A stretch of DNA of 10,137 nucleotides from Lachnospiraceae bacterium (lineage in GTDB: Bacteria; Bacillota; Clostridia; Lachnospirales; Lachnospiraceae). A program made the translations under genes and the position numbers. The notes beneath the pieces were generated by a model. It saw only the letters and a list, made by a program, of their open reading frames with translations. It was not told where the DNA came from and did not search any database. Of the stretch, positions 1 to 10,137 are shown piece by piece; position 1 is the stretch's first letter; each line of letters opens with the position of its first letter. Location: NCBI GenBank assembly GCA_030527685.1, contig JAUNAG010000095.1, positions 1 to 10,137 of the forward strand, written 5' to 3'.

Positions 1-205
1 ATTATACGATGAAAACACATCCGGAGAATTATAAACGCTATACATCTTTTAGTGATGCAATGAATGAGGTTCTTGAAGATGCTTGATTTCATCATGTCTA
101 ATAGATTCAGAAAAGATTTGAAATGAGCTTATGCTTTTTTATCACGTACAGGCACACACTCGGATCTATTCTCTTGAAGTATCAAAATTACAGAGCATTA
201 TTCTG

Positions 206-231
206 CAGCCGGTAATTCCGGCTGCTTTTTC
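206..231 (+). terminator. Putative rho-independent terminator hairpin (GCAGCCGG-taat-tCCGGCTGC followed by TTTTT)
   Basis: Seen directly: an 8-bp GC-rich inverted repeat with a 4–5-nt loop, followed by a T5 run on the + strand. It lies between the window start and the merR stop codon. Read on the minus strand it is followed by agaau rather than a U-tract, so it works mainly in the + direction. It may terminate a gene ending upstream of, or at, position 86. Confidence 0.5.
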
Positions 232-292
232 TAGGCCTGAAAAAAGGAAGTGATCGATGTACAAAGTGTCCGGGTACGTGGACCGTTATCAT

Positions 293-1300
293 TCACTTCA
301 GACAGCTCCTCAGCTGCGGTATATTCACCAGTGATTCCAGAATACCGTGATTGGATTCTTCCAGATCCAGAGAATCGCCGAAGGCATCCATCAGACTCTG
401 CCGCAGTTCAGAACCTTCTTCAGTGTAAAGATATTGATAGAGTTTCTCGCATACACGGACGATGTTGCGCGTGTACTGCCGGAACATCGGGCTGAGCTCA
501 GAGGCAAGCATACCGAGTCTGGATGCATAGACAGAAGTAGTCGGTTTCAGGAAGGACTCACTGTATTTATGCCACAGGCGTGCATTGGCCGGATTGGAGG
601 CAGTTTCCTGCAGCTCCTGAATCATGGAGTCAATAAAGGCAGCATCTGTTTCCCCGGACAGAGAAGTAATCAGCTGATACCGCTCGGACTGCATGGAAAA
701 CAGCTCGTCAATCTGCTCGGAGCTGAGAGACTGGAAGAACAGCTGCAGCTTCCTGTAAGCTTCATCCGGTTCCTGCAGAGTCAGTCTGTTGATCTTCATC
801 CAGATGAATTCCTGATACTCACTGAACTTTTCGTGAGGAAGGAAAGCAGAAAACAGATAGCGGTTGAGCGCGCCGGAGCTGTAGACGGCAGAAGCATCCT
901 CACCCGTATTCGGTGAAGGCGGTTCCGGAAACTGTGCTTCGAGACAGAGCGTGTAAAGATCAGAAAAATCGGGGTAGAGCGGAAGCTCGTCAATGATGTG
1001 ATTCATGCCGATCAGCGTCTGCGAAATCCGGATCTGCTCCTGACGCAGCCGACGGATGTGCTGGTTTAGATAATGCGTTGCCGTGATCGGCGAGTGAAGC
1101 ATAGAGGAGATACTCGCTACGGACATCCCTGCGTCACGCATCTTTTTGACAAATGTCAGCCGCTCGCAGTCCGCTTCTGTGAATTCATAATATCCGTTTG
1201 CAGCATCAACAGACGGAGAGAGAAGCCCCTCCTGTATATAGAAATGGATATTTCTTTTTGTTAAGCCTGTCTTTTCACTGACCTGTCTGAGTTTCATCAT
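293..1300 (-). CDS. MerR-family transcriptional regulator with a large (~260 aa) C-terminal putative effector-binding domain
   Basis: Long ORF of 335 aa. The N-terminus, MKLRQVSEKTGLTKRNIHFYIQEGLL, matches the MerR helix-turn-helix signature (xxIgEvAkxxGvsxRTLRYYexxGLL pattern). There is a GAAGGGA ribosome-binding site 7–8 nt upstream of ATGATG, shown by the reverse complement of 1301–1312. It is transcribed divergently from the large oxidoreductase gene. The + strand ORFs 250..495 and 347..916 that overlap it are antisense artefacts. Confidence 0.85.
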   Translation of the reverse strand: MMKLRQVSEKTGLTKRNIHFYIQEGLLSPSVDAANGYYEFTEADCERLTFVKKMRDAGMSVASISSMLHSPITATHYLNQHIRRLRQEQIRISQTLIGMNHIIDELPLYPDFSDLYTLCLEAQFPEPPSPNTGEDASAVYSSGALNRYLFSAFLPHEKFSEYQEFIWMKINRLTLQEPDEAYRKLQLFFQSLSSEQIDELFSMQSERYQLITSLSGETDAAFIDSMIQELQETASNPANARLWHKYSESFLKPTTSVYASRLGMLASELSPMFRQYTRNIVRVCEKLYQYLYTEEGSELRQSLMDAFGDSLDLEESNHGILESLVNIPQLRSCLK

Positions 1301-1456
1301 TCATATCCCTTCAGAGATTCCATCTGTACCTGTCGTAGTTTCAGAAAATCCGGCTGCATTAATAATGCTGTTTTTCCGAAACAACTCATAGAAAGTGCTT
1401 TCCTGAGGATTATCTTTTTCGATTCCAGGTATAATTTTTTAAATTCATCTATAGTA

Positions 1457-1470
1457 TACAGTTAACTGTA
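1457..1470. promoter_or_regulatory. Perfect 14-bp palindrome TACAGTTAACTGTA in the merR/reductase intergenic region (candidate operator or merR promoter element)
   Basis: Seen directly: TACAGTT|AACTGTA is a perfect dyad. It sits about 160 bp upstream of merR on the minus strand and about 110 bp upstream of the MerR-type promoter. A TATAAT at 1430–1435 flanks it. I cannot assign it to a known regulator. Confidence 0.3.
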
Positions 1471-1578
1471 CAGAATTTCAGCCGGATAATCGTTTTTGGT
1501 GCAGGAAAAAGCCTGAAAATGCGTTTTGTTCGGCGTTTGCAACGAGCCGGAAGAACGAACTTTGGCAAAATTGCGAGT

Positions 1579-1609
1579 TTGACCGTACACCAGCTGTATC
1601 GTGTACATT
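1579..1609 (+). promoter_or_regulatory. MerR-type promoter: -35 TTGACC (1579–1584), 19-bp spacer carrying the dyad GTACAC-N10-GTGTAC (1585–1606), -10 TACATT (1604–1609)
   Basis: Seen directly: TTGACC, then a 19-nt spacer, then TACATT. A perfect 6-N10-6 inverted repeat (GTACACcagctgtatcGTGTAC) fills the spacer and overlaps the -10. MerR-family promoters are known to have over-long 19–20-bp spacers with the operator dyad between -35 and -10. This one is about 50 nt upstream of the reductase start codon and divergent from merR. Confidence 0.55.
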
Positions 1610-1656
1610 GGGGAGGAAGCAAAGAACTTTAATACAGAATGACGAGGACAAGTGAT

Positions 1657-4600
1657 ATGTTTGAACATCTGTTTACCCCTATTAAGATTCGAGGAATGGA
1701 ATTAAGAAACCGCGGCATCATGCCTGCTATGGGAACCAAGTTTTCCGGCAACACAAGCGATGTGACGCCGACACTGATCGAGTACCACAGACTTCGTGCA
1801 AAGGGCGGCAGCGGCCTGAACATCGTAGAGGTCAGCAGCGTGCATACACCGAGTGCACCGAGACATTTCCTGTCCTTAAGCGAAGACCGCTATATTCCGG
1901 GAATGAAGAAGCTGACAGACGCAATCCATGCGGAAGGCGGAAAGGCAGGCGTCCAGCTCTGGCAGGGAAGTCTTGCAGTCGGCCTTGATCAGACAGCACA
2001 GATCCTGATGGCAAGTGAGATGCCGGTAGCTCCGGGCGTCACACTCCCGGGCATGACAGTAGAAGAGATTGAGGAGATCGTCAGATGCTACGGCCAGGCT
2101 GCCGAAAGAGCAGTGAAGGCAGGTTTTGACTGCCTCGAATTCCACTGTGCACACAATTATCTGCCGCATTCCTTCCTCTCGGGCGGCATCAACCACAGAA
2201 CCGATGAATACGGCGGTTCCCTTGAGAACAGAGCAAAGTTCCCGCTGGCATGTATCCGCGAAATTCGTGCTCATATCCCGGAGGATATGCCGCTGTTCAT
2301 GCGAATTGATGCACATGATGATTATCTGGAGAACGGCCTGACAATTGAGGAAGTCATCACCTTCTGCAAGTGGGCAGGCGAAGCAGGTGTGGACGTTCTG
2401 GACGTCTCCCGCGGCAATGTCATCACTCCGGCCAATAAATTCGAGGTTCCGCCGATCGATCTTCCGAGAGGCTTTAATATTCCAAATGCAGCCCGCATCC
2501 GCCGCGAGACCGGCATGCTCACCATCGGTGTCGGACGCATCAACACACCGGAGCTTGCAGAGAAATATCTCGCAGAGGATCAGGTGGACATGGTCGTTCT
2601 CGGACGCGCACAGTACGTTGATCCGGAATTCATGAATAAGGCAAGAGAAGGCCGCACAGAGGATATCGATCACTGTGTAGGCTGTGACCAGGGCTGCCTG
2701 GATGCATTTGCAGATACAAACTGCCCGCAGGTTACCTGCCTGCGTAATCCCGCACTCGGAAGAGAACTGGAATGCAGGATCACAAAGACAGAAAAGCCGG
2801 AAACAGTTCTGATTGCAGGCGGCGGTATTGCGGGACTTGAAGCGGCAATCGTTCTGCAGCAGAGAGGCCACCGCGCTGTGATCTGCGAAGCAGGTGACAA
2901 GCTGGGCGGCCAGTTCCTGACAGCAGGTGAGGCACCGCGCAAGCAGGAGATGAAGGACGAAGTCATCGCGATGGCAAAGAAGGCAGAGCGTCTCGGTGCA
3001 GAAATCCGTCTTCACACCAAAGTTGACGCAGAGCTGATCCGTGAGATGAAGCCGCATACCGTGATGAACGCCATCGGTGCGGTTCCGATCCGTCCGCGTA
3101 TTCCGGGCATTGAGCAGAGCTTTGTTGTCAGCTCCCATGATGTACTGAACGGCCTGACAGAGGTCTCCGGCAAGGTTGTCGTCATCGGCGGCGGTATGGT
3201 TGGCATGGAAGTTGCCGAGTATCTCGCTGAGAGAGGCTGCAGCGTCACAGACCTGGAGATGATGAAGGAATACTGCGCAGATCTGGGCATGGCACGTAAG
3301 TTCTGTGTACAGGAGAGCATCGCAGCTGCAGGAATCGAGTCTGTAACAGAAGTTAAGGTGACCGGTATTGAGCCGGGCAAGGTCGTCGGCGTCAAGGGCG
3401 GAGAGCAGGTTGAGTATCCGTGTGATTATGCAGTTGTAGCCATCGGCTCTGTATCCCGTGACGGCAGAGAGCTGGAGGCAGCTGCAAGAGAAGTCGGTGC
3501 AGGCTACTTCGTCATCGGTGATGCAGGACGCGCAAGACGCGCAATGAATGCAACCAGAGAAGCATTCGACGCAGCATTGACATTTGACGATCCGGCAGTT
3601 CATGCAGATGTGACAAAGCCGCAGAAGGTCGTAGCCGTGACCGGTGCCACAGGTACCATGGGTCTGGAGACACTGAAGCAGCTGCTTGGCAGAAAGAACA
3701 GATTTAAAGTCAGAGCATTTGCAAGAGAATCTGATATCAACAGACAGAAGATGAAGCAGATGGCTGCTCCGAATCTGGAAGTCGTCTGGGGCGATCTGGC
3801 CAATTACGATGATATCAGGCGACTGGTGGACGGCGCCGATTATGTACTTCACATCGGTGCGATGGTTTCACCGGCAGCTGACAAATATCCGGAGAAGACA
3901 CTGTACACGAACATCGGCTCAACCCTGAACATCATCAAGGCAATCAAGGAGCAGCCGGATCCGGACAAGGTGCATTTCGTCTATGTCGGAACAGTGGCAG
4001 AGACGGGCGCAAGAACCTATCCGATTCACTGGGGACGTGTCGGTGATCCGATCAATCCGTCGATTTTCGATTACTATGCACTTTCCAAGGTGTATTCAGA
4101 GCTTGCTGTTTTTGAATCCGGCCTGAAGCACTGGGCATCGATCAGACAGACAGGACAGCATCCGAGTGCGGAAGGAGCAGGCGAGGAGCCGATCATCTTC
4201 CACCAGCCGGCAAACAATGTTCTCGAGTGGAGTACATCCATTGAATCCGGTATCTGCATGGCCAATGTCTGCGAGGAATGGGTTCCGGAATCCTTCTGGA
4301 GAAAAGCTTACAACCTCAGCAGCGGTCCGGCTTACAGACTGACCTGCTGGGAACTGACAGATCTGATGATGGAGCCCTTCGGCATCAGTATCAAGGATCT
4401 CTACGATGCAGACGCACTGCCGTTCTACAATTTCCACGGCCATTACTTCTCCGACAGCCAGAAGCTGGATGACATCCTGCATTTCCGCTGCATTCCGGGC
4501 GAAGCTTACTGGGAAGGCGTTCGCGACGAGATGAGACGCATGAAGGCCAATCCGATGATTGCGGCTATGTTCCCGAGCGCAGAGCAGATGAAGGAACATA

Positions 4601-5127
4601 ACAAGGAGATCGGCATGAAGAAGGGCGGTCTGTACTATGCTCTGGAGAACGGAGACGAGGACTGGATCAAGGCATTCTACGGATCTGCCGAGAAGCGTGC
4701 GGAAATCAAGAGCTGGGATGATGTGGAGCTTTTCCATCCGAGCGAAGAAGAGACTTATCTTGACCACGGCTATGACGAAGAGAAGGGAATCGAAAATCTG
4801 ACACTCGAGGATCTGCAGAAGGCAGCGGCATTCCGCGGCGGCAGATGCCTGATCTCCGCAGTGCCGGCTGATATCTACACCCCGATTCTGTGGGAGTGCG
4901 CCGACAGCCATCAGTTTGCAATGTCTATCAATGCAGTCCTGCAGGGCGGCCACTGGTGCCCGGAGTGCCTGGCACATGAATGGCATTACGGTGACATCGC
5001 AAAGAAGAATCCGTTCTATGCACAGGTCTGGACACCGCTTCACGGTGATGAAGACAACTACGTGATTCCGATGGAATACAGCGGCTTTGATGTGGCAAAC
5101 GAGCTGAAGAACAAGCTTGGTTTATAA
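1657..5127 (+). CDS. Multidomain oxidoreductase: FadH/BaiCD-like NADH:flavin enoate reductase (FMN TIM barrel + 4Fe-4S + two FAD/NAD(P) Rossmann domains) fused to an extended-SDR (NAD-dependent epimerase/3beta-HSD-like) domain and a C-terminal domain of unknown function
   Basis: The ORF track gives 1639..5127. I prefer the ATG at 1657 because GAGGA at 1643–1647 sits 8 nt upstream; the 1639 ATG has its GGAGG 22 nt away. Residues 7–340 carry Old Yellow Enzyme family motifs (HCAHNYLPHSFLSGGINHRTDEYGGSLENRAKFP). Residues 346–367 read CVGCDQGCLD...C...C, matching the FadH-type 4Fe-4S motif CIGCNQAC. Residues 388–425 are VLIAGGGIAGLEAAIVLQQRGHRAVICEAGDKLGGQ, an FAD-binding GxGxxG fold. Residues 512–533 are VVVIGGGMVGMEVAEYLAERG, a second dinucleotide fold. 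Residues 663–820 are VVAVTGATGTMG...YALSK, an extended-SDR Rossmann with a catalytic YxxxK. Residues about 900–1162 have no motif I recognise. The frame is continuous throughout. Confidence 0.85.
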   Translation: MFEHLFTPIKIRGMELRNRGIMPAMGTKFSGNTSDVTPTLIEYHRLRAKGGSGLNIVEVSSVHTPSAPRHFLSLSEDRYIPGMKKLTDAIHAEGGKAGVQLWQGSLAVGLDQTAQILMASEMPVAPGVTLPGMTVEEIEEIVRCYGQAAERAVKAGFDCLEFHCAHNYLPHSFLSGGINHRTDEYGGSLENRAKFPLACIREIRAHIPEDMPLFMRIDAHDDYLENGLTIEEVITFCKWAGEAGVDVLDVSRGNVITPANKFEVPPIDLPRGFNIPNAARIRRETGMLTIGVGRINTPELAEKYLAEDQVDMVVLGRAQYVDPEFMNKAREGRTEDIDHCVGCDQGCLDAFADTNCPQVTCLRNPALGRELECRITKTEKPETVLIAGGGIAGLEAAIVLQQRGHRAVICEAGDKLGGQFLTAGEAPRKQEMKDEVIAMAKKAERLGAEIRLHTKVDAELIREMKPHTVMNAIGAVPIRPRIPGIEQSFVVSSHDVLNGLTEVSGKVVVIGGGMVGMEVAEYLAERGCSVTDLEMMKEYCADLGMARKFCVQESIAAAGIESVTEVKVTGIEPGKVVGVKGGEQVEYPCDYAVVAIGSVSRDGRELEAAAREVGAGYFVIGDAGRARRAMNATREAFDAALTFDDPAVHADVTKPQKVVAVTGATGTMGLETLKQLLGRKNRFKVRAFARESDINRQKMKQMAAPNLEVVWGDLANYDDIRRLVDGADYVLHIGAMVSPAADKYPEKTLYTNIGSTLNIIKAIKEQPDPDKVHFVYVGTVAETGARTYPIHWGRVGDPINPSIFDYYALSKVYSELAVFESGLKHWASIRQTGQHPSAEGAGEEPIIFHQPANNVLEWSTSIESGICMANVCEEWVPESFWRKAYNLSSGPAYRLTCWELTDLMMEPFGISIKDLYDADALPFYNFHGHYFSDSQKLDDILHFRCIPGEAYWEGVRDEMRRMKANPMIAAMFPSAEQMKEHNKEIGMKKGGLYYALENGDEDWIKAFYGSAEKRAEIKSWDDVELFHPSEEETYLDHGYDEEKGIENLTLEDLQKAAAFRGGRCLISAVPADIYTPILWECADSHQFAMSINAVLQGGHWCPECLAHEWHYGDIAKKNPFYAQVWTPLHGDEDNYVIPMEYSGFDVANELKNKLGL

Positions 5128-5144: not shown

Positions 5145-5888
5145 ATGTTAAAAGATAAGGTTGCAGTCGTAACAGGCGGTACACGCGGAATCGGTTACGC
5201 GATCGTGAAGAAGTATCTGGAAAACGGCGCAAAAGTTGTCCTCTTTGGTTCCAGACCGGAGACAGTCGAGAAGGCAGTACAGTCTCTGAAGGCTGAGAAT
5301 GCAGAGTGGGAAGTCAGTGGTGCAAGCCCGGACCTCGGCAATGCGAAAGCAGTTGCCGAAGAGATCGGAAAGGTAAAGGAGAAGTACGGCAGACTGGATA
5401 TTCTGGTCAATAACGCCGGCGTATCCGACAGCACACTGCTTGCAGATTATCAGGACGGCCAGTTCGAGAAGGTCATGGAACTGAACCTCCTCGGCGTCTA
5501 CCACACCATTCAGCCGGCAGCTTCTGTCATGAAGGAGCAGGGTGGTGGATGCATTATCAACATCAGCTCCATGGTAAGCCGTTTCGGCCAGCCGGGCGGT
5601 GTTGCTTATCCGACCAGCAAGTTCGCAGTCAACGGTCTGACCATCTCCCTTGCACGTGAGCTCGGCCCGGATCAGATCCGCGTCAATGCAGTCGCACCGG
5701 GTGTCACAAAGACCGATATGGTTGCCGCACTTCCGGATGAGGTCATCCAGCCGCTGCTGAACACGATTCCGCTTCGCAGAATCGGCGAGCCGGAGGATAT
5801 TGCAAATGCATGCCTCTTCCTTGCAAGTGATCTGGCAAGCTATGTCTCGGGAGCAGTGCTTTCAGTAGACGGAGCAACACTGGTATAA
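5145..5888 (+). CDS. Classical short-chain dehydrogenase/reductase (FabG/hydroxysteroid dehydrogenase-like, 247 aa)
   Basis: The N-terminal VAVVTGGTRGIG matches the TGxxxGIG cofactor motif. NNAG, the catalytic Ser in ISSMVS and the YPTSK (YxxxK) motif are all present. GGAGGG at 5131–5136 is a ribosome-binding site 8 nt before the ATG. The gene starts 17 nt after the fusion gene's stop, so the two are co-transcribed. Confidence 0.9.
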   Translation: MLKDKVAVVTGGTRGIGYAIVKKYLENGAKVVLFGSRPETVEKAVQSLKAENAEWEVSGASPDLGNAKAVAEEIGKVKEKYGRLDILVNNAGVSDSTLLADYQDGQFEKVMELNLLGVYHTIQPAASVMKEQGGGCIINISSMVSRFGQPGGVAYPTSKFAVNGLTISLARELGPDQIRVNAVAPGVTKTDMVAALPDEVIQPLLNTIPLRRIGEPEDIANACLFLASDLASYVSGAVLSVDGATLV

Positions 5889-5917
5889 AATATTAAAGAA
5901 CAGAAGATATAAGTGGA

Positions 5918-5952
5918 AAGCCGTGTGTCCGGGAGGATACACGGCTTTTTTT
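5918..5952 (+). terminator. Rho-independent terminator downstream of the SDR gene
   Basis: Seen directly: the stem is AAGCCGTGTGTCC / GGATACACGGCTT, 13 bp with one G·U pair, around a GGGA loop. A T7 run follows at 5946–5952. Confidence 0.6.
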
Positions 5953-6026
5953 GACTGCATCTCATTTTACAGAGCATATCATCTTATGCTGAGAGAATGA
6001 TTCAACTGCTGTGAAAGGGGAAAACA

Positions 6027-6629
6027 ATGGGAAATTGCTACGGTTATATACGCGTCAGCTCACATGAACAGAATCCGGATCGACAGCTTGCGGCGATGCA
6101 CGAGCTGCACATTCCGGAGAAAAACATTTATCTGGATAAGGTTTCGGGAAAGGACTTTGACCGGGAGGGCTATAAGAAGCTTTTCAGGAAACTGAAAAAA
6201 GGAGACACACTTTATATCAAGAGTATCGACCGTCTTGGGAGAAACTACAGAGAAATCATCGAACAGTGGCAGCTCCTGACGCGCAAAAAGCAGGTTTACA
6301 TGGTCGTACTGGATATGTCCCTGCTTGATACGCGAAGAGGCGGGGACTTGCTGGATACATTTATCAGTGAACTCGTACTGCAGATTTTATCCTATGTTGC
6401 GGAAAATGAGCGCACACAGATCAGGCAGCGTCAGGAGGAGGGAATCGCGGCTGCAAAAGCAAAAGGAGTCAGATTCGGCAGGCCGCCCAGAGAGACGGGA
6501 GCGGAATTCGCCCATGCATACGCCAGATGGAAGAAAGGGGAAATATCACAGAATGTGGAGGCAAGACAGTGTGGAATGGCGGCATCAACTTTTCGTTATA
6601 AGATCAGGAAAATGCAATTGGAAGAATAA
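6027..6629 (+). CDS. Small serine recombinase (resolvase/invertase family, catalytic domain + C-terminal HTH)
   Basis: The N-terminus YGYIRVSSHEQNPDRQ carries the catalytic-serine signature Y-x-R-V-S-x-x-x-Q of the Tn3/gamma-delta resolvase and Hin/Gin family. Further family motifs are DKVSGK..DREGY, DRLGRN, ILSYVAENER and AKAKGVRFGRP. The C-terminal ~45 aa form a helix-turn-helix. AAAGGGG at 6014–6020 is a ribosome-binding site 6 nt before the ATG. Confidence 0.9.
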   Translation: MGNCYGYIRVSSHEQNPDRQLAAMHELHIPEKNIYLDKVSGKDFDREGYKKLFRKLKKGDTLYIKSIDRLGRNYREIIEQWQLLTRKKQVYMVVLDMSLLDTRRGGDLLDTFISELVLQILSYVAENERTQIRQRQEEGIAAAKAKGVRFGRPPRETGAEFAHAYARWKKGEISQNVEARQCGMAASTFRYKIRKMQLEE

Positions 6630-6632
6630 CAG

Positions 6633-6662
6633 CCGGGCAGAAAGGTATACTTTTCTGCCCGG
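6633..6662. repeat. Site S1: 30-bp near-perfect palindrome CCGGGCAGAAAgGTATACtTTTCTGCCCGG immediately 3' of the recombinase stop (candidate recombinase binding/crossover site; may double as a terminator hairpin)
   Basis: Seen directly: 12-bp arms flank the self-complementary hexamer GTATAC (6645–6650). The only arm mismatch pairs as G·U in RNA. A moderately U-rich stretch (gtgattctttc) follows. Confidence 0.6.
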
Positions 6663-6774
6663 TGATTCTTTCAGATTATATACAACAATATAGAACAATT
6701 TTACACCAGAAACATACGTGAAACAAGCATTCCGATCGGATCGACCAGACTGATTACGCCGGATTGTAAGTCCA

Positions 6775-6798
6775 CAGAAACGTATACTTTTCTGCCCG
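6775..6798. repeat. Site S2: second copy CAGAAAcGTATACtTTTCTGCCCG of the S1 core, 137 bp downstream (centre to centre), about 8 bp before the ORF-track start of the next gene
   Basis: Seen directly: 23 of 24 positions match the S1 core. It has the same GTATAC centre, at 6782–6787. The right arm TTTTCTGCCCG is identical to S1. Only CAGAAA of the left arm is conserved. Because both copies are near-palindromic, their relative orientation is ambiguous; the direct alignment is slightly better than the inverted one. Confidence 0.6.
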
Positions 6799-6805
6799 AT
6801 GCAAA

Positions 6806-8680
6806 ATGAAATCAATTCGGGGGAATATGGATATGGCTTCTTTTGTCATGGAGTGTCCGAGCTGCGGCAGGTATGTCGAGGCGAAAACAGGCTTTTTTGC
6901 AAGAAAGAAAATTGACTGTACCTGTGGTTATACCATCAATGTTCGCACAGATAAGCTGACCGGCAGAGTGTGTCCGCACTGCGGCAACAACGTGGTTTTT
7001 GATCAGAGCAAGGCGGATCAGGCGAAGTGCCCGGTCTGCAATGAGCCGATCAACACAATGGAAGAACAGAGCAAGGTGGTGGAATTCTCCTGCGGTCAGT
7101 GCGGTGTACGTCTTCGCGCAGCAAAGGGAACAGATACCTATACCTGCCCGGTCTGTGACCATGTGAACAAAGTGGCTGAAAGAGCTGAGCTGGAAGAAGC
7201 AAAAAAGTCCGGTCTGGCAAGCATCATTCGATACGAGGGGGATAATGCGACGCTTGTCTGGAAGCATCCGCTCGAGGATTTCAACATGGGCTCTCAGCTG
7301 ATTGTCCATGAGTCACAGGAGGCGATCTTCTTCCGCGACGGACAGGCATTGGATCTTTTCGGAGCCGGACGATACACACTGGAGACACAGCAGCTGCCAC
7401 TTCTTGAGAAGATTTATCAGCTTCCGACAGACAGTGAGGCGACATTTCACTCGGAGGTTTACTTCATTAACCGTGCCACGCAGATGGGAATCAAGTGGGG
7501 AACGGACAGCAAGGTTCGCCTGTTTGATCCGATCTCCGGACTTCATGTAGAGCTTGGCGCAAGCGGTGAATTTAATATCCGTGTAGAAAATGCAAGGAAG
7601 CTCCTTCTGCGGATTGTCGGCACGACGGGAGGCCTCAGCAGTGAATCTCTCGTGGGAAATCTGAATTCCAAGGGAATCTTCAGAAGTCTGATCATGACCC
7701 AGGTCAAGAGCTTCCTGGCACAGACGATCAAGGAAAATCAGATCAGCGTTCTTGAGATCGATGAACACCTGATGACACTTTCGGCATCTCTTCGGGAGAA
7801 GATCAATCAGAGCCTTGAGGACTATGGTCTTATGATGCCGGAGTTCTTCGTATCCCGTGTCGTGACACCGGATGATGATCCGAACTTCCGAAGAATGAAG
7901 GAGCAGTATGCAAGACAGTATCTCTCTGTCCGGGAGGAGGAGATCCGGAAACGTGAGGCAGAAGCAGCGGCAGAGCGAAAGGCTGTGGAGGCACAGACCG
8001 ATGCCCGCATGCAGATCATTCATGCACAGGGAAGTGCAGAGGCCATGAAGATCCAAAAGCAGGCCGAGGCAGAAGCTTATCGGATGCAGGCAGCTGCAGA
8101 GGCAGCGGAAATGCAGATGAAGGGCTATTCCTATCAGCAGGAGACATCGCGCATGGTTGGCATGGAGGCGATGAAGAACGGACTGACCGGAGAAGGAGGC
8201 AGCGGCATCATCGGAGACCTCGCAGGACTCGGAGCCTCCCTTGGCGTGATGGGCGGTGTCGCCGGAATGGCCAAGGATATGCTCAATCCGGTTGTACAGG
8301 GAGTCGGAGGTGCATTTGCCGCAGGCGCACAGAACGGAGCGTTCGGAGACAGTCAGATGGGACAGTCCTCCCTCGGAAACGGAGTGCCCGGCGCAGCAAC
8401 TCCCGCACACAGTGCACCGGGGGACAGCTGGAACTGCAGCTGCGGTGCGGCAGGAATTACGAGCAAGTTCTGCCCCGAGTGCGGTGCGAAACGTCCCGAA
8501 CCAAAGCTGCCTGCGACCTGGAACTGTCCGAATTGCGGCGCAGCAGGAATTACAAGTAAGTTCTGTCCCGAATGCGGAACCAGAAAGCCGGAGAAGACGA
8601 CATGGTGCTGTCCGAACTGCGGTGCAAAGGAAATTACTAGCCGCTTCTGCCCCGAGTGCGGAACAGCAAAACCGGAATAA
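6806..8680 (+). CDS. Zinc-ribbon / SPFH (Band-7, PF13421-like, YdjI-type) / coiled-coil / triple C-terminal zinc-ribbon protein
   Basis: The true start is probably 6827 or 6833, because GGGGGAA at 6819–6825 is a ribosome-binding site. The N-terminus has three CxxC...CxxC zinc ribbons (CPSCG..CTCG, CPHCG..CPVC, CGQCG..CPVC). Residues about 140–360 match the Band_7_1/SPFH family that is often misannotated as virion core protein, with LVWKHPLEDFNMGSQLIVHESQEAIFFRDGQ...GAGRYTLETQQLPLL...EVYFINRA...IKWGT. An Ala/Glu-rich coiled coil and a Gly-rich linker follow. The C-terminus has three tandem W(N/C)CPNCGA(A/K)(G/E)ITS(K/R)FCPECG repeats. Confidence 0.8.
   Translation: MKSIRGNMDMASFVMECPSCGRYVEAKTGFFARKKIDCTCGYTINVRTDKLTGRVCPHCGNNVVFDQSKADQAKCPVCNEPINTMEEQSKVVEFSCGQCGVRLRAAKGTDTYTCPVCDHVNKVAERAELEEAKKSGLASIIRYEGDNATLVWKHPLEDFNMGSQLIVHESQEAIFFRDGQALDLFGAGRYTLETQQLPLLEKIYQLPTDSEATFHSEVYFINRATQMGIKWGTDSKVRLFDPISGLHVELGASGEFNIRVENARKLLLRIVGTTGGLSSESLVGNLNSKGIFRSLIMTQVKSFLAQTIKENQISVLEIDEHLMTLSASLREKINQSLEDYGLMMPEFFVSRVVTPDDDPNFRRMKEQYARQYLSVREEEIRKREAEAAAERKAVEAQTDARMQIIHAQGSAEAMKIQKQAEAEAYRMQAAAEAAEMQMKGYSYQQETSRMVGMEAMKNGLTGEGGSGIIGDLAGLGASLGVMGGVAGMAKDMLNPVVQGVGGAFAAGAQNGAFGDSQMGQSSLGNGVPGAATPAHSAPGDSWNCSCGAAGITSKFCPECGAKRPEPKLPATWNCPNCGAAGITSKFCPECGTRKPEKTTWCCPNCGAKEITSRFCPECGTAKPE
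8429..8677 (+). repeat. Three tandem in-frame coding repeats (periods 90 and 84 bp) encoding zinc-ribbon modules
   Basis: Seen directly: the units start at 8429, 8519 and 8603 (tggaactgcagctgcggtgcggcaggaattac..., tggaactgtccgaattgcggcgcagcaggaattac..., tggtgctgtccgaactgcggtgcaaaggaaattac...). They share about 75–80% nucleotide identity. All are in frame within CDS 6806..8680. They are not CRISPR: there are no unique spacers. Confidence 0.8.
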
Positions 8681-8716
8681 ATCACAACACGTCGATTGGG
8701 TTAAGGAGAAAGTGAT

Positions 8717-9421
8717 ATGACAGCAAATCAGAAGAGAGCCGCATTGACAGGCGGCATCGTGATGGCCTGCTTCACATTGATCACATTAATCGCCCCACTT
8801 CAGAAAGGAAGCGTCTACATCCTGTCATTCCTGTTCACATGGATCGCGGCATGTGTGGCAGGCTATGGAATCTACAGAGGTTTACTGAACGGCACATCTG
8901 TAAAAAGTAAATATTACGGCTTTCCGATCGCCAGGATCGGTGGCATCTATTTCGTCATTCAGCTTATCCTAAGCATCCTCCTTATGATTACGGCTACATT
9001 TATCGAGATGCCGATGTGGATCGCGGCGATTCTCTACATCGCCCTGCTGGCAGCAACAGGCATCGGCATGATCGGAGCTGTGTCAGTGCGAGAAGAAGTG
9101 GAACGACAGGACAGCGAAGTAAAGAGAAAGACCTCTGTTATCCGGGAACTGCAGAGCATCTCTGCGGGATTTGCAGGATTGACAGATAATCCGGAAGTGA
9201 AAAAGAAATTGCAGAAACTCACAGATGAGCTGCGATTCAGCGATCCGGTGAGCTCTGAGGAAACAGCAGGGATTGAGAATAAGCTGAGAGAAAAGATCGA
9301 GGAGATCCGAACACTTCTGACTACAGGAGAAGCTGACCGGGAAGCAGTGACAGTACTTTGCGAAGAAACAACACGACTGATTGGAGAACGGAATCGAATC
9401 TGCAAGGATGGGAAGAGATAA
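8717..9421 (+). CDS. Membrane protein: four N-terminal transmembrane helices followed by a ~110-aa helical/coiled-coil cytoplasmic domain (hypothetical; possible partner of the SPFH protein)
   Basis: AAGGAG at 8703–8708 is a ribosome-binding site 8 nt before the ATG. Four hydrophobic stretches lie at residues about 10–28, 33–53, 74–96 and 100–122. The C-terminal part is charged and helical (EVKKKLQKLTDELRF...KIEEIRTLL). The gene is 36 nt downstream of the SPFH gene with no terminator between them. Confidence 0.75.
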   Translation: MTANQKRAALTGGIVMACFTLITLIAPLQKGSVYILSFLFTWIAACVAGYGIYRGLLNGTSVKSKYYGFPIARIGGIYFVIQLILSILLMITATFIEMPMWIAAILYIALLAATGIGMIGAVSVREEVERQDSEVKRKTSVIRELQSISAGFAGLTDNPEVKKKLQKLTDELRFSDPVSSEETAGIENKLREKIEEIRTLLTTGEADREAVTVLCEETTRLIGERNRICKDGKR

Positions 9422-9434
9422 GAGGTGAGTCATA

Positions 9435-10001
9435 TTGGCGGAAGCAGATAAAATATGCTTTTTATTTGGAGCAGGAGCAGAAGTAGGATTTGACATCGCC
9501 GGAGGTGGAGATTTTGCAAAGGACGTGCTCGGTATATCGGATGAAGGAAAGGCGATGACCGATGCAATAGCGGAGTATTACAAAAAGGGAAGAAGCTGTT
9601 TAGTTGGAACGGAAACAGATGGATGGTATCCGGTATATACAAGGCAGGGGTGGAAGAGTAATGAGATCAAGAAAGCTGCTGTAATGACAAAGTTTCTTTT
9701 CGAGAAATCAGATGAAATTACGGATTCAAAAAAGAATTTTGAAACAATTATTAAGCGCGAAGTAAAGAATGCTAAGGATAGCGAAATAAAGAAGTATTTA
9801 AGTTATAAGGGGTTGATAGATGCAAATTTTTATACGATGATCGCACCAAAATATCTCGGGCCGACTAAGTTCTGGCAGGTAGTCAATACTTTGAGGAATT
9901 TAATAAAAGATATGGCAGTCATGTTCATATACTGGACTGGGCATTGCACCTTGATGAGTCCACTCCCCATATCCATGAAAGGCATGTCTTTGATGCGGTG
10001 A
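9435..10001 (+). CDS. Hypothetical protein with a TTG start; the N-terminus has a weak SIR2-like motif (ICFLFGAGAEVGF). The 3' ~45 codons are probably spurious read-through into a mob remnant in a different frame
   Basis: A strong ribosome-binding site, AAGAGGTGA (9420–9428), sits 6 nt before TTG at 9435. It is only 13 nt after the membrane-protein stop, so the three genes form an operon. GC content drops from about 55% to roughly 35–45% from here on. FLFGAGA resembles the SIR2_2 N-terminal motif (vlFlGAGxS), and GTETDG loosely resembles TTNYD. From about 9869 a different reading frame carries clear Mob_Pre sequence, so the real C-terminus is uncertain. Confidence 0.4.
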   Translation: MAEADKICFLFGAGAEVGFDIAGGGDFAKDVLGISDEGKAMTDAIAEYYKKGRSCLVGTETDGWYPVYTRQGWKSNEIKKAAVMTKFLFEKSDEITDSKKNFETIIKREVKNAKDSEIKKYLSYKGLIDANFYTMIAPKYLGPTKFWQVVNTLRNLIKDMAVMFIYWTGHCTLMSPLPISMKGMSLMR

Positions 10002-10137
10002 ACCAGTACGGAGAGTTATGCCCCCAACAGGACAAAGCTCTGGAAGAATTAGGAATGGAGTTGCCTGATCCGACCAAGAAAAAAGGAAAATATAATAATC
10101 GCAAGATGACCTTCGATGCAGAGTGCAGAAAGCTCTT
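9869..10137 (+). pseudogene. mob: 5'-truncated Mob_Pre (MobV/pMV158 MobM-type) plasmid mobilisation relaxase, running off the window end
   Basis: The frame starting at 9869, read after an in-frame TAA at 9866–9868, gives VLAGSQYFEEFNKRYGSHVHILDWALHLDESTPHIHERHVFDAVNQYGELCPQQDKALEELGMELPDPTKKKGKYNNRKMTFDAECRKL. This contains the family-defining motif III HxDE(S/T)TPHxH and the preceding FFE...YG block. The roughly 100 N-terminal residues are absent: there is no HNER motif I and no start codon in frame. The catalytic Tyr/His region is therefore missing from this frame. Confidence 0.6.

Follow-up and report, generated by a model that had tools for sequence, protein, structure and literature searches.

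The question raised by contig JAUNAG010000095.1 is why a relaxase gene begins at its right-hand end without its N-terminal part, in a frame overlapped by a second open reading frame (ORF). The window analysed here was the entire contig, 10,137 bp from a Lachnospiraceae metagenome-assembled genome (MAG). An earlier note, made from the letters alone, had placed the break at 9869 and had regarded the DNA from 6027 to the end as the remnant of a mobilisable small plasmid or integrative element, with a single sequencing indel as the alternative. In the present analysis the break was located at 9884/9885, where the beginning of a SIR2-like gene meets the end of a divergent gene of the MOBV relaxase type. 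This point is best read as an out-of-frame deletion junction within a decayed integrative mobilisable element (IME), a reading to which a probability of about 0.78 was assigned. The features that meet here are the following:

9435-9884, plus strand: 5' fragment of a SIR2-like gene, first 150 codons (phmmer, alignment A1).
9866-9868, plus strand: TAA that opens the relaxase frame, an out-of-frame triplet within the SIR2-like coding sequence.
9884/9885, no strand: proposed deletion junction, at which two homology boundaries lie in the same orientation and in different reading frames.
9885-10137, plus strand: 3' fragment of a divergent MOBV-type relaxase gene (mob), from about codon 136 of about 407 (Pfam, tblastn, blastn, hhalign).
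9435-10001, plus strand: chimeric ORF of 188 codons, 150 SIR2-like and 38 out-of-frame relaxase codons.

On the right side of the break, the relaxase frame, open from 9869 just behind the TAA, was translated as VLAGSQYFEEFNKRYGSHVHILDWALHLDESTPHIHERHVFD... and stayed open to the end of the contig, carrying motif III (HLDESTPHIH) at 9947-9976 just as the earlier note had described. This frame goes on for 46 bases past the window end in contig L003 of the Logan assemblies. The 89-aa fragment that it encodes was 88% identical in amino acids to residues 134-218 of a 407-aa protein of the Kurthia gibsonii plasmid pND2a (E 3e-49), and it aligned with positions 106-174 of the 196 positions of the Pfam profile Mob_Pre (PF01076; E 6.9e-5) at 23.2 bits, below the cut-off of 25.5. 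A scan of public metagenomes gave more than 570 matches to the fragment, and 98 of these loci were fetched for comparison. The intact relaxases measured 407-414 aa and shared a highly conserved N-terminus, MK(A/L)TRHNGRxGKHGxYNPKHNDRxFD...NVYWDC, in which motif I appears as KHNDR at residues 19-23 and motif II as NVYWD at 41-45.

It was this N-terminus that the window copy lacked. No N-terminal piece was found in the window in any frame or on either strand when the Kurthia protein was used as a tblastn query, and motifs I (HxxR) and II (NY(D/E)L) were absent from the window in every frame. The missing part comes to about 135 residues in the numbering of the family itself and about 105 in that of Pfam and MobM, in agreement with the earlier claim that the N-terminus, motif I included, was gone. 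The fragment also had no ATG, GTG or TTG start upstream of motif III. Comparison with the N-termini of the relatives, a check proposed at the time of that claim, showed that 96 of the 98 loci have detectable homology to the part lost here, and about 90 of them have at least 135 open codons 5' of the point equivalent to the junction.

The relationship of this family to MOBV relaxases is a distant one. A profile built from 19 intact members was aligned by hhalign with MobM, the prototype of pMV158, whose sequence had been checked against PDB entry 4LVI; the alignment (probability 85%, E 5.9e-6) extended across motifs I-III and paired KHNDR with KHNER (the His22 region), NVYWD with LNYEL and HLDExTPHIH with HLDESTPHMH. 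Motif I of MobM holds the catalytic residue, His22, whose equivalent is lost from the window. Within motif III, which forms the metal-binding histidine triad, the D, the E, the P and the first two H were invariant across the 19 members, and the last H was replaced by Q in two. Against Pfam Mob_Pre the intact relatives scored 19.4 bits or gave no match, the NCBIfam MobV model gave 22.6 bits against a cut-off of 100, and no PDB sequence was matched by phmmer or hmmsearch with the relaxase family. Of these comparisons, it was solely the profile-profile alignment that argued for MOBV membership.

On the left side, the ORF that reads through the break in another frame (9435-10001), correctly reported before, proved to be a truncated SIR2-like gene, an identity that the earlier note had overlooked. 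Its TTG start at 9435 is preceded by a ribosome-binding site, AAGAGGTGA, at 9420-9428. A word-indexed search of 5.8 billion proteins with the 188-aa product returned only the protein itself, on Logan contig L003; the tool seems limited to proteins of similar length, and with the Mob query it did not return the 407-aa Kurthia protein either. The SIR2-like family was found later by an exhaustive phmmer (HMMER) search with residues 1-144 of the ORF. This yielded 64 representative relatives, mostly of 365-430 aa, whose own N-terminal residues, about 140 of them, aligned with residues 5-143 of the query. In alignment A1 the homology ran through ...PKYLGPTKFWQVV, with the invariant pattern P-K-x-L-G-P-x-K-F-W-x-V-V, and none was seen beyond, so that it ends at V150/N151, which corresponds to nucleotides 9882-9887. 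A full-length gene of this family encodes about 370-400 aa; hence the window copy is without its C-terminal 220-250 residues or so. The GAGAE Rossmann motif was kept in the fragment. The conserved TTNYT...HGK and DDNH segments, which by analogy with sirtuins may include the catalytic Asn and His, lie at family positions of about 207-304, beyond codon 150, and are lost.

The fold of this family was read on an AlphaFold model of an intact relative, P0122, and not on the window fragment. The model was of high quality, with a predicted local distance difference test (pLDDT) value of 91.7 and a predicted template modelling (pTM) score of 0.90. Its best Foldseek match was the SIR2 protein of SIR2-HerA (Nezha), with E 2.9e-7 and a TM score of 0.45-0.50, and classical sirtuins came next. 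Intact relatives of the left partner are thus predicted to adopt a SIR2-like fold. The matches to Pfam AbiH, Pfam SIR2_2 and the PADLOC SIR2 models were all below threshold and fell in the C-terminal half, which the window copy lacks. No close relatives of the fragment were found in JGI metagenomes or IMG/VR, and phmmer and hmmsearch with the SIR2-like family matched no PDB sequence.

The boundary of the right-hand homology was just as sharp. At least 24 blastn alignments to the relaxase loci began exactly at 9885, with about 80% nucleotide identity, and none among the 98 loci ran further left. When the DNA of the Kurthia gene was compared with the window, 27 of 30 positions agreed in each of two 30-nt blocks from 9887, as against 9 of 30 in the preceding block. 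As judged from these alignments, the two homologies abut at 9884/9885 with an ambiguity of at most about 3 nt. A k-mer assembly made independently, Logan contig L003, showed the identical junction. The break therefore lies 16 nt to the right of the frame opening at 9869, where it had been placed before. Since SIR2-like homology continues to 9884, the TAA at 9866-9868 is an out-of-frame stop inside the SIR2-like gene and marks no gene boundary.

The fall in G+C content from about 9600, which had been taken as a sign of the junction, was also observed. Values of 0.29-0.33 were found in 100-nt windows at 9650-9800, and the minimum over 300 nt, 0.347 at 9631, was the lowest in the whole stretch (mean 0.508, standard deviation 0.055). 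It does not mark the junction. The G+C content at third codon positions (GC3) was 0.54-0.60 from the MerR gene at the left end through the gene for a 234-aa protein at 8717-9421; the SIR2-like fragment had a value of 0.39 and the mob fragment one of 0.48. Because GC3 is already low from the start at 9435, the drop belongs to the SIR2-like gene. On these grounds an island boundary in composition at 9600 was rejected, since the shift begins at 9435 and recurs in another locus, L004. There, the SIR2-like homologue (7998-9212) had a GC3 of 0.30, against 0.68 for the following SPFH gene and 0.54 for the homologue of the 234-aa gene (both within 9205-11443), despite the fact that the SIR2-like stop overlaps the SPFH start. 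In the window, the SPFH and four-transmembrane partners of the SIR2-like gene had a GC3 of 0.54-0.59. The low GC3 of the SIR2-like gene in two independent loci suggests recent cassette exchange of an effector gene.

The element to which the two fragments would have belonged is outlined by the genes immediately to the left, which include the following:

6027-6629, plus strand: small serine recombinase (resolvase; Pfam Resolvase, E 9e-31).
6633-6662 and 6775-6801, no strand: paired palindromes, 137 nt apart, with a half-site at 6707-6716, in a res-like layout.
6806-8680, plus strand: SPFH/Band-7 protein with zinc ribbons (Pfam).
8717-9421, plus strand: 234-aa protein with four predicted transmembrane segments (no Pfam match).

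The relatives of the relaxase gene supplied the missing context. Many were found in long contigs, of up to 1.8 Mb. Downstream of mob, a CHC2 primase gene was present in 48 and a VirE-family gene in 52 of the 69 loci whose sequence extends far enough; a gene for a large serine recombinase, with Recombinase, Zn_ribbon_recom and DUF4368 domains, was found in 30 of 49. This gene set is the architecture of a serine-recombinase integrative mobilisable element. Upstream, in L079 (64% identity) and L072 (55%), a homologue of the window resolvase lay about 3.3 kb before mob with cargo in between, which in L079 was an MmeI-type restriction-modification gene. Palindromes were again found 3' of these resolvase homologues, at 3842-3991 in L072 (spacing 126) and at 4300-4444 in L079 (spacing 125). 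The order and orientation of the fragments in the window, namely resolvase, palindromes, cargo and mob, match those of these two intact elements, and by this analogy the resolvase at 6027-6629 is probably the left-hand module of the mob element. Of the two origins proposed for the DNA from 6027 to the end, the integrative one was supported. The small plasmid was not: no rep gene was found, and the long contigs of the relatives speak against it. A megablast search of the PLSDB plasmids with 9000-10137 gave no match. That the whole of this DNA forms one element agrees with the layout of L079 and L072, but the analogy draws on two informative loci out of 47.

The palindromes of these three otherwise diverged elements share further traits. 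They measure about 24-30 nt, have the core GTATAC (GTGTAC/GTACAC in L079) and are spaced by 125-137 nt; both the window and L072 have a half-site in the gap. The layout is like that of a three-subsite res site, yet it stands 3' of the recombinase gene.

Furthermore, a non-coding region of about 270 nt 5' of mob was conserved in the relatives, even where the proteins were only about 55% identical. It bears a nested hairpin, CCCAGTTA-GTGGCG-TTT-CGCCAC-TAAGTACTGGG, whose pattern was found in 21 loci at 140-180 nt before the mob ATG (for example, L013 7330-7480 and L001 3441-3477). Its position and structure make the hairpin the candidate oriT of these relaxases. No Rfam family was matched by the conserved region. 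In the window, the hairpin pattern had no occurrence with up to three mismatches allowed, and blastn with 82 mob-upstream regions of relatives likewise found nothing there.

Directly observed here are the points at which the two homologies stop, the lack of the missing parts in the window and the architecture seen in relatives. A single deletion within one element would account for them as follows. The ancestor would have carried the resolvase with its res-like sites, a cargo of SPFH, four-transmembrane and SIR2-like genes, the oriT-like hairpin and a MOBV-type relaxase gene of about 407 codons, followed, by analogy with the relatives, by genes for a CHC2 primase, a VirE protein and a large serine recombinase. 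In one event of illegitimate recombination, the SIR2-like gene would then have lost its 3' two thirds and the relaxase gene its first 135 or so codons, together with the intergenic region that bears the candidate oriT, a total of at least about 1.3 kb if the SIR2-like and relaxase genes adjoined. The remnants would have been joined out of frame, leaving the chimeric ORF, with 150 SIR2-like and 38 nonsense residues, and a mob fragment with no start. The functional consequences would be loss of function on both sides. The relaxase fragment should be unable to nick DNA, because it is without start codon, motif I and motif II; no oriT would be left, and mobilisation by the element's own relaxase would have been lost. 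The SIR2-like product is presumably inactive, since the invariant N..HG and DDNH segments are gone and 38 nonsense residues stand at its end.

Several points weigh against this reading. An intact parental allele was found for neither gene, and the nearest relaxase DNA was about 80% identical. The junction comes from one sample, in which the MAG and Logan contigs apparently derive from the same run, and their reads are probably non-independent. Only 253 nt of the contig follow the junction, which leaves the remainder of the element out of view, and neither end of the element was identified. Moreover, the linkage of resolvase to mob was seen in only two of the 47 relatives with enough upstream sequence.

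The alternative that survives best, an improbable one all the same, is a metagenome mis-assembly, in which two unrelated molecules, one with the SIR2-like gene and the other with the mob gene, were joined in silico at 9884/9885. The whole window is a 10,137-bp MAG contig that stops shortly after the junction, and the Logan contig extends it by no more than 46 nt, a pattern to be expected if a repeated mob gene causes a branch in the assembly graph; that both assemblies stop in mob within 46 nt suggests that downstream mob sequence is repeated in the sample. The difference in composition across the junction and the great abundance of the mob family in gut metagenomes (570+ matches) point in the same direction. 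Nevertheless, the identical junction was obtained from two different assemblers. For an assembler of the de Bruijn type to form such a chimera, a k-mer of about 30 nt would have to be common to both molecules, whereas the repeats that touch the junction are 13 nt long at most. In addition, no more than 3 nt separate the ends of the two homologies, and the fragments stand in the order and orientation of real elements.

The Logan contigs compared here stem from a single run, SRR24915842, which probably represents the MAG's own data. These contigs (L003 and L111) span about 193-3615 and 5501-10183 in window coordinates and break at other places than the MAG contig, including inside the short-chain dehydrogenase/reductase (SDR) gene at 5501. 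Exact matches to the resolvase, the 234-aa protein and the MerR protein were found solely on the Logan contigs of this run, and the exact SDR and 1162-aa oxidoreductase proteins had no record in the gene-position index. At NCBI, the product of 8717-9421 exists in exact form as Q4B09_09160.

Slightly less probable still is an insertion, in which a foreign segment ending at 9884 would have entered an intact mob gene, whose 5' half would then lie beyond the other end of the insert. Nesting of IMEs and other elements is frequent in Firmicutes (PMC12084326), and the DNA left of 6027 looks housekeeping or accessory, with a different G+C content. Under this explanation, the insert would end inside a gene, at codon 150, and position 9884 shows neither a terminal repeat nor a recombinase site. 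Neither a 5' part of mob nor an oriT was found within the 9.9 kb to the left, and intact relatives already have a resolvase and cargo directly upstream of mob.

Finally, a sequencing indel, a true frameshift in an intact mob gene or a programmed frameshift giving a fusion protein can be dismissed. The reading frames do overlap at 9869-10001, and simple frameshifts or premature stops occur in some relatives (L025, L031/L034, L049/L050). To the left of 9885, however, the sequence resembles none of about 100 relaxase genes in any frame, and its homology is to the N-terminal part of a different protein family. No slippery heptamer was seen by eye in 9869-10001, and a SIR2 N-terminus joined to a relaxase without its catalytic motifs has no plausible activity. 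The single indel allowed for in the earlier note is thereby excluded, as is the candidate of a programmed frameshift with a functional fusion, which was rejected on the lack of a slippery site and of the catalytic parts in both halves.

The remaining genes of the window lie to the left of the proposed element:

293-1300, minus strand: MerR regulator (ORF, Pfam), divergent from the 1162-aa ORF beside it.
1639-5127, plus strand: 1162-aa fusion of an old yellow enzyme (OYE), a pyridine-nucleotide oxidoreductase and an epimerase (ORF, Pfam).
5145-5888, plus strand: SDR (ORF, Pfam).

The 1162-aa ORF joins an OYE-type flavin mononucleotide oxidoreductase, a pyridine-nucleotide-disulphide oxidoreductase and an NAD-dependent epimerase/NmrA-like domain, and the SDR gene comes next. 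Just 3' of the latter stands a G+C-rich hairpin, AAAGCCGTGTGTCC / GGATACACGGCTTT (5917-5948), followed by a T run to 5955, which is likely the intrinsic terminator of the SDR gene. The left end of the element could lie within 5955-6027, between this terminator and the resolvase.

The cargo itself deserves separate mention. The genes for the SPFH/zinc-ribbon protein and for a four-transmembrane protein of about 230 aa form an invariant pair, found at 6806-9421 in the window, at 7998-11443 in L004, at 2081-4832 in L009 and in L112-L121; besides L004 and L009, four further independent lineages carry it. In the 234-aa protein of the window, a helical tail follows the four hydrophobic segments. In every locus examined, the pair was flanked on either side by variable TIR-TPR, TIR-RCC1, SIR2_2 or SIR2-like genes. 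In L009 a SIR2-like gene, cut to a stub of 42 codons (MRNFCFLFGAGAESLSGISGGGNFAKAVLG...; 2081-2209), stands upstream of an intact SPFH and four-transmembrane pair. Thus, the SIR2-like gene was truncated independently in two of the three loci carrying it, the window and L009, which might be due to selection against a toxic effector and not to neutral decay. The SPFH, four-transmembrane and SIR2-like genes matched no PADLOC model above noise, and no literature combining SPFH, SIR2 and phage defence was found. Known defence systems show a similar pattern of a constant core and exchangeable NADase-type neighbours; the finding here is a lead and not a result. It is possible, though on balance doubtful, that the SPFH and four-transmembrane proteins form the core of an undescribed membrane-associated module for defence or abortive infection, in which the gene cut at the junction was the exchangeable effector.

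Compared with the SIR2 proteins of known defence systems (SIR2-HerA/Nezha, ThsA and DSR2) and with AbiH, the likeness lies in the fold of the intact family, in the GAGAE motif kept in the window and in the presence of TIR and SIR2_2 genes as neighbours. The differences are that there is no HerA, SLOG or Argonaute partner, the partners being the SPFH and four-transmembrane proteins, and that the window copy has lost its catalytic half.

Regarding the element type, Tn4451 is the studied prototype of serine-recombinase IMEs. Tn4451 and Tn4453 of Clostridia encode the large serine recombinase TnpX, the Mob/Pre relaxase TnpZ and the resolvase-like protein TnpY. Relatives of the window element resemble Tn4451-type and MOBV1 IMEs in that they pair a MOBV-like relaxase with a DUF4368 large serine recombinase, and in that, in some, a small resolvase gene and cargo precede mob, the cargo being variable and defence-related. 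In contrast, no close sequence relationship to TnpZ of Tn4451 was detected, and tblastn against plasmids gave only four records; the relatives further add the CHC2 primase and VirE genes, and the window shows no integrase, att sites or right-hand part. With MobM, the window copy has in common motif III of the form HxDExxPHxH, HLDESTPHIH in place of HLDESTPHMH. It differs from MobM in the distance of the relationship, both the fragment and the intact relatives falling below the Pfam and NCBIfam cut-offs. The intact relatives, of about 407 aa, are borne by integrated elements and not by a small rolling-circle plasmid, and the window copy has neither motifs I and II, nor a start codon, nor an oriT.

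Taken as a whole, the feature was judged to be an ordinary decayed IME with a new, sub-threshold MOBV member and a truncated SIR2-like cargo gene. Gut Firmicutes are rich in MOBV1 IMEs and in remnants left by their decay, and decayed integrative conjugative elements and individual relaxase pseudogenes are likewise reported from them (PMC5704250, PMC12084326). For annotation, 9435-10137 should be entered as two pseudogene fragments joined by a deletion, and not as a hypothetical protein and a partial relaxase. The element on this contig should not be counted as mobilisable, because it shows no oriT, no catalytic half of the relaxase and no visible integrase.

The relaxase family was abundant in gut metagenomes (more than 570 matches in one scan) and fell below the Pfam and NCBIfam thresholds even when intact; complete examples are found in L013 (7596-8816), L021 (4191-5411) and L079 (7590-8978). 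One RefSeq copy is labelled 'serine/arginine repetitive matrix protein 2', and the plasmid that bears it is typed as non-mobilizable by MOB-suite.

The locus is thus a further example of IME decay in gut Firmicutes and brings no new principle, its surrounding context being more useful than the scar. Elements that carry a sub-threshold MOBV-like relaxase of this kind can escape mobilome screens that rely on domain models, because the family lies below the cut-offs of Pfam Mob_Pre and NCBIfam MobV, and the pair of SPFH and membrane-protein genes with swappable TIR and SIR2 neighbours is a candidate for defence-system testing.

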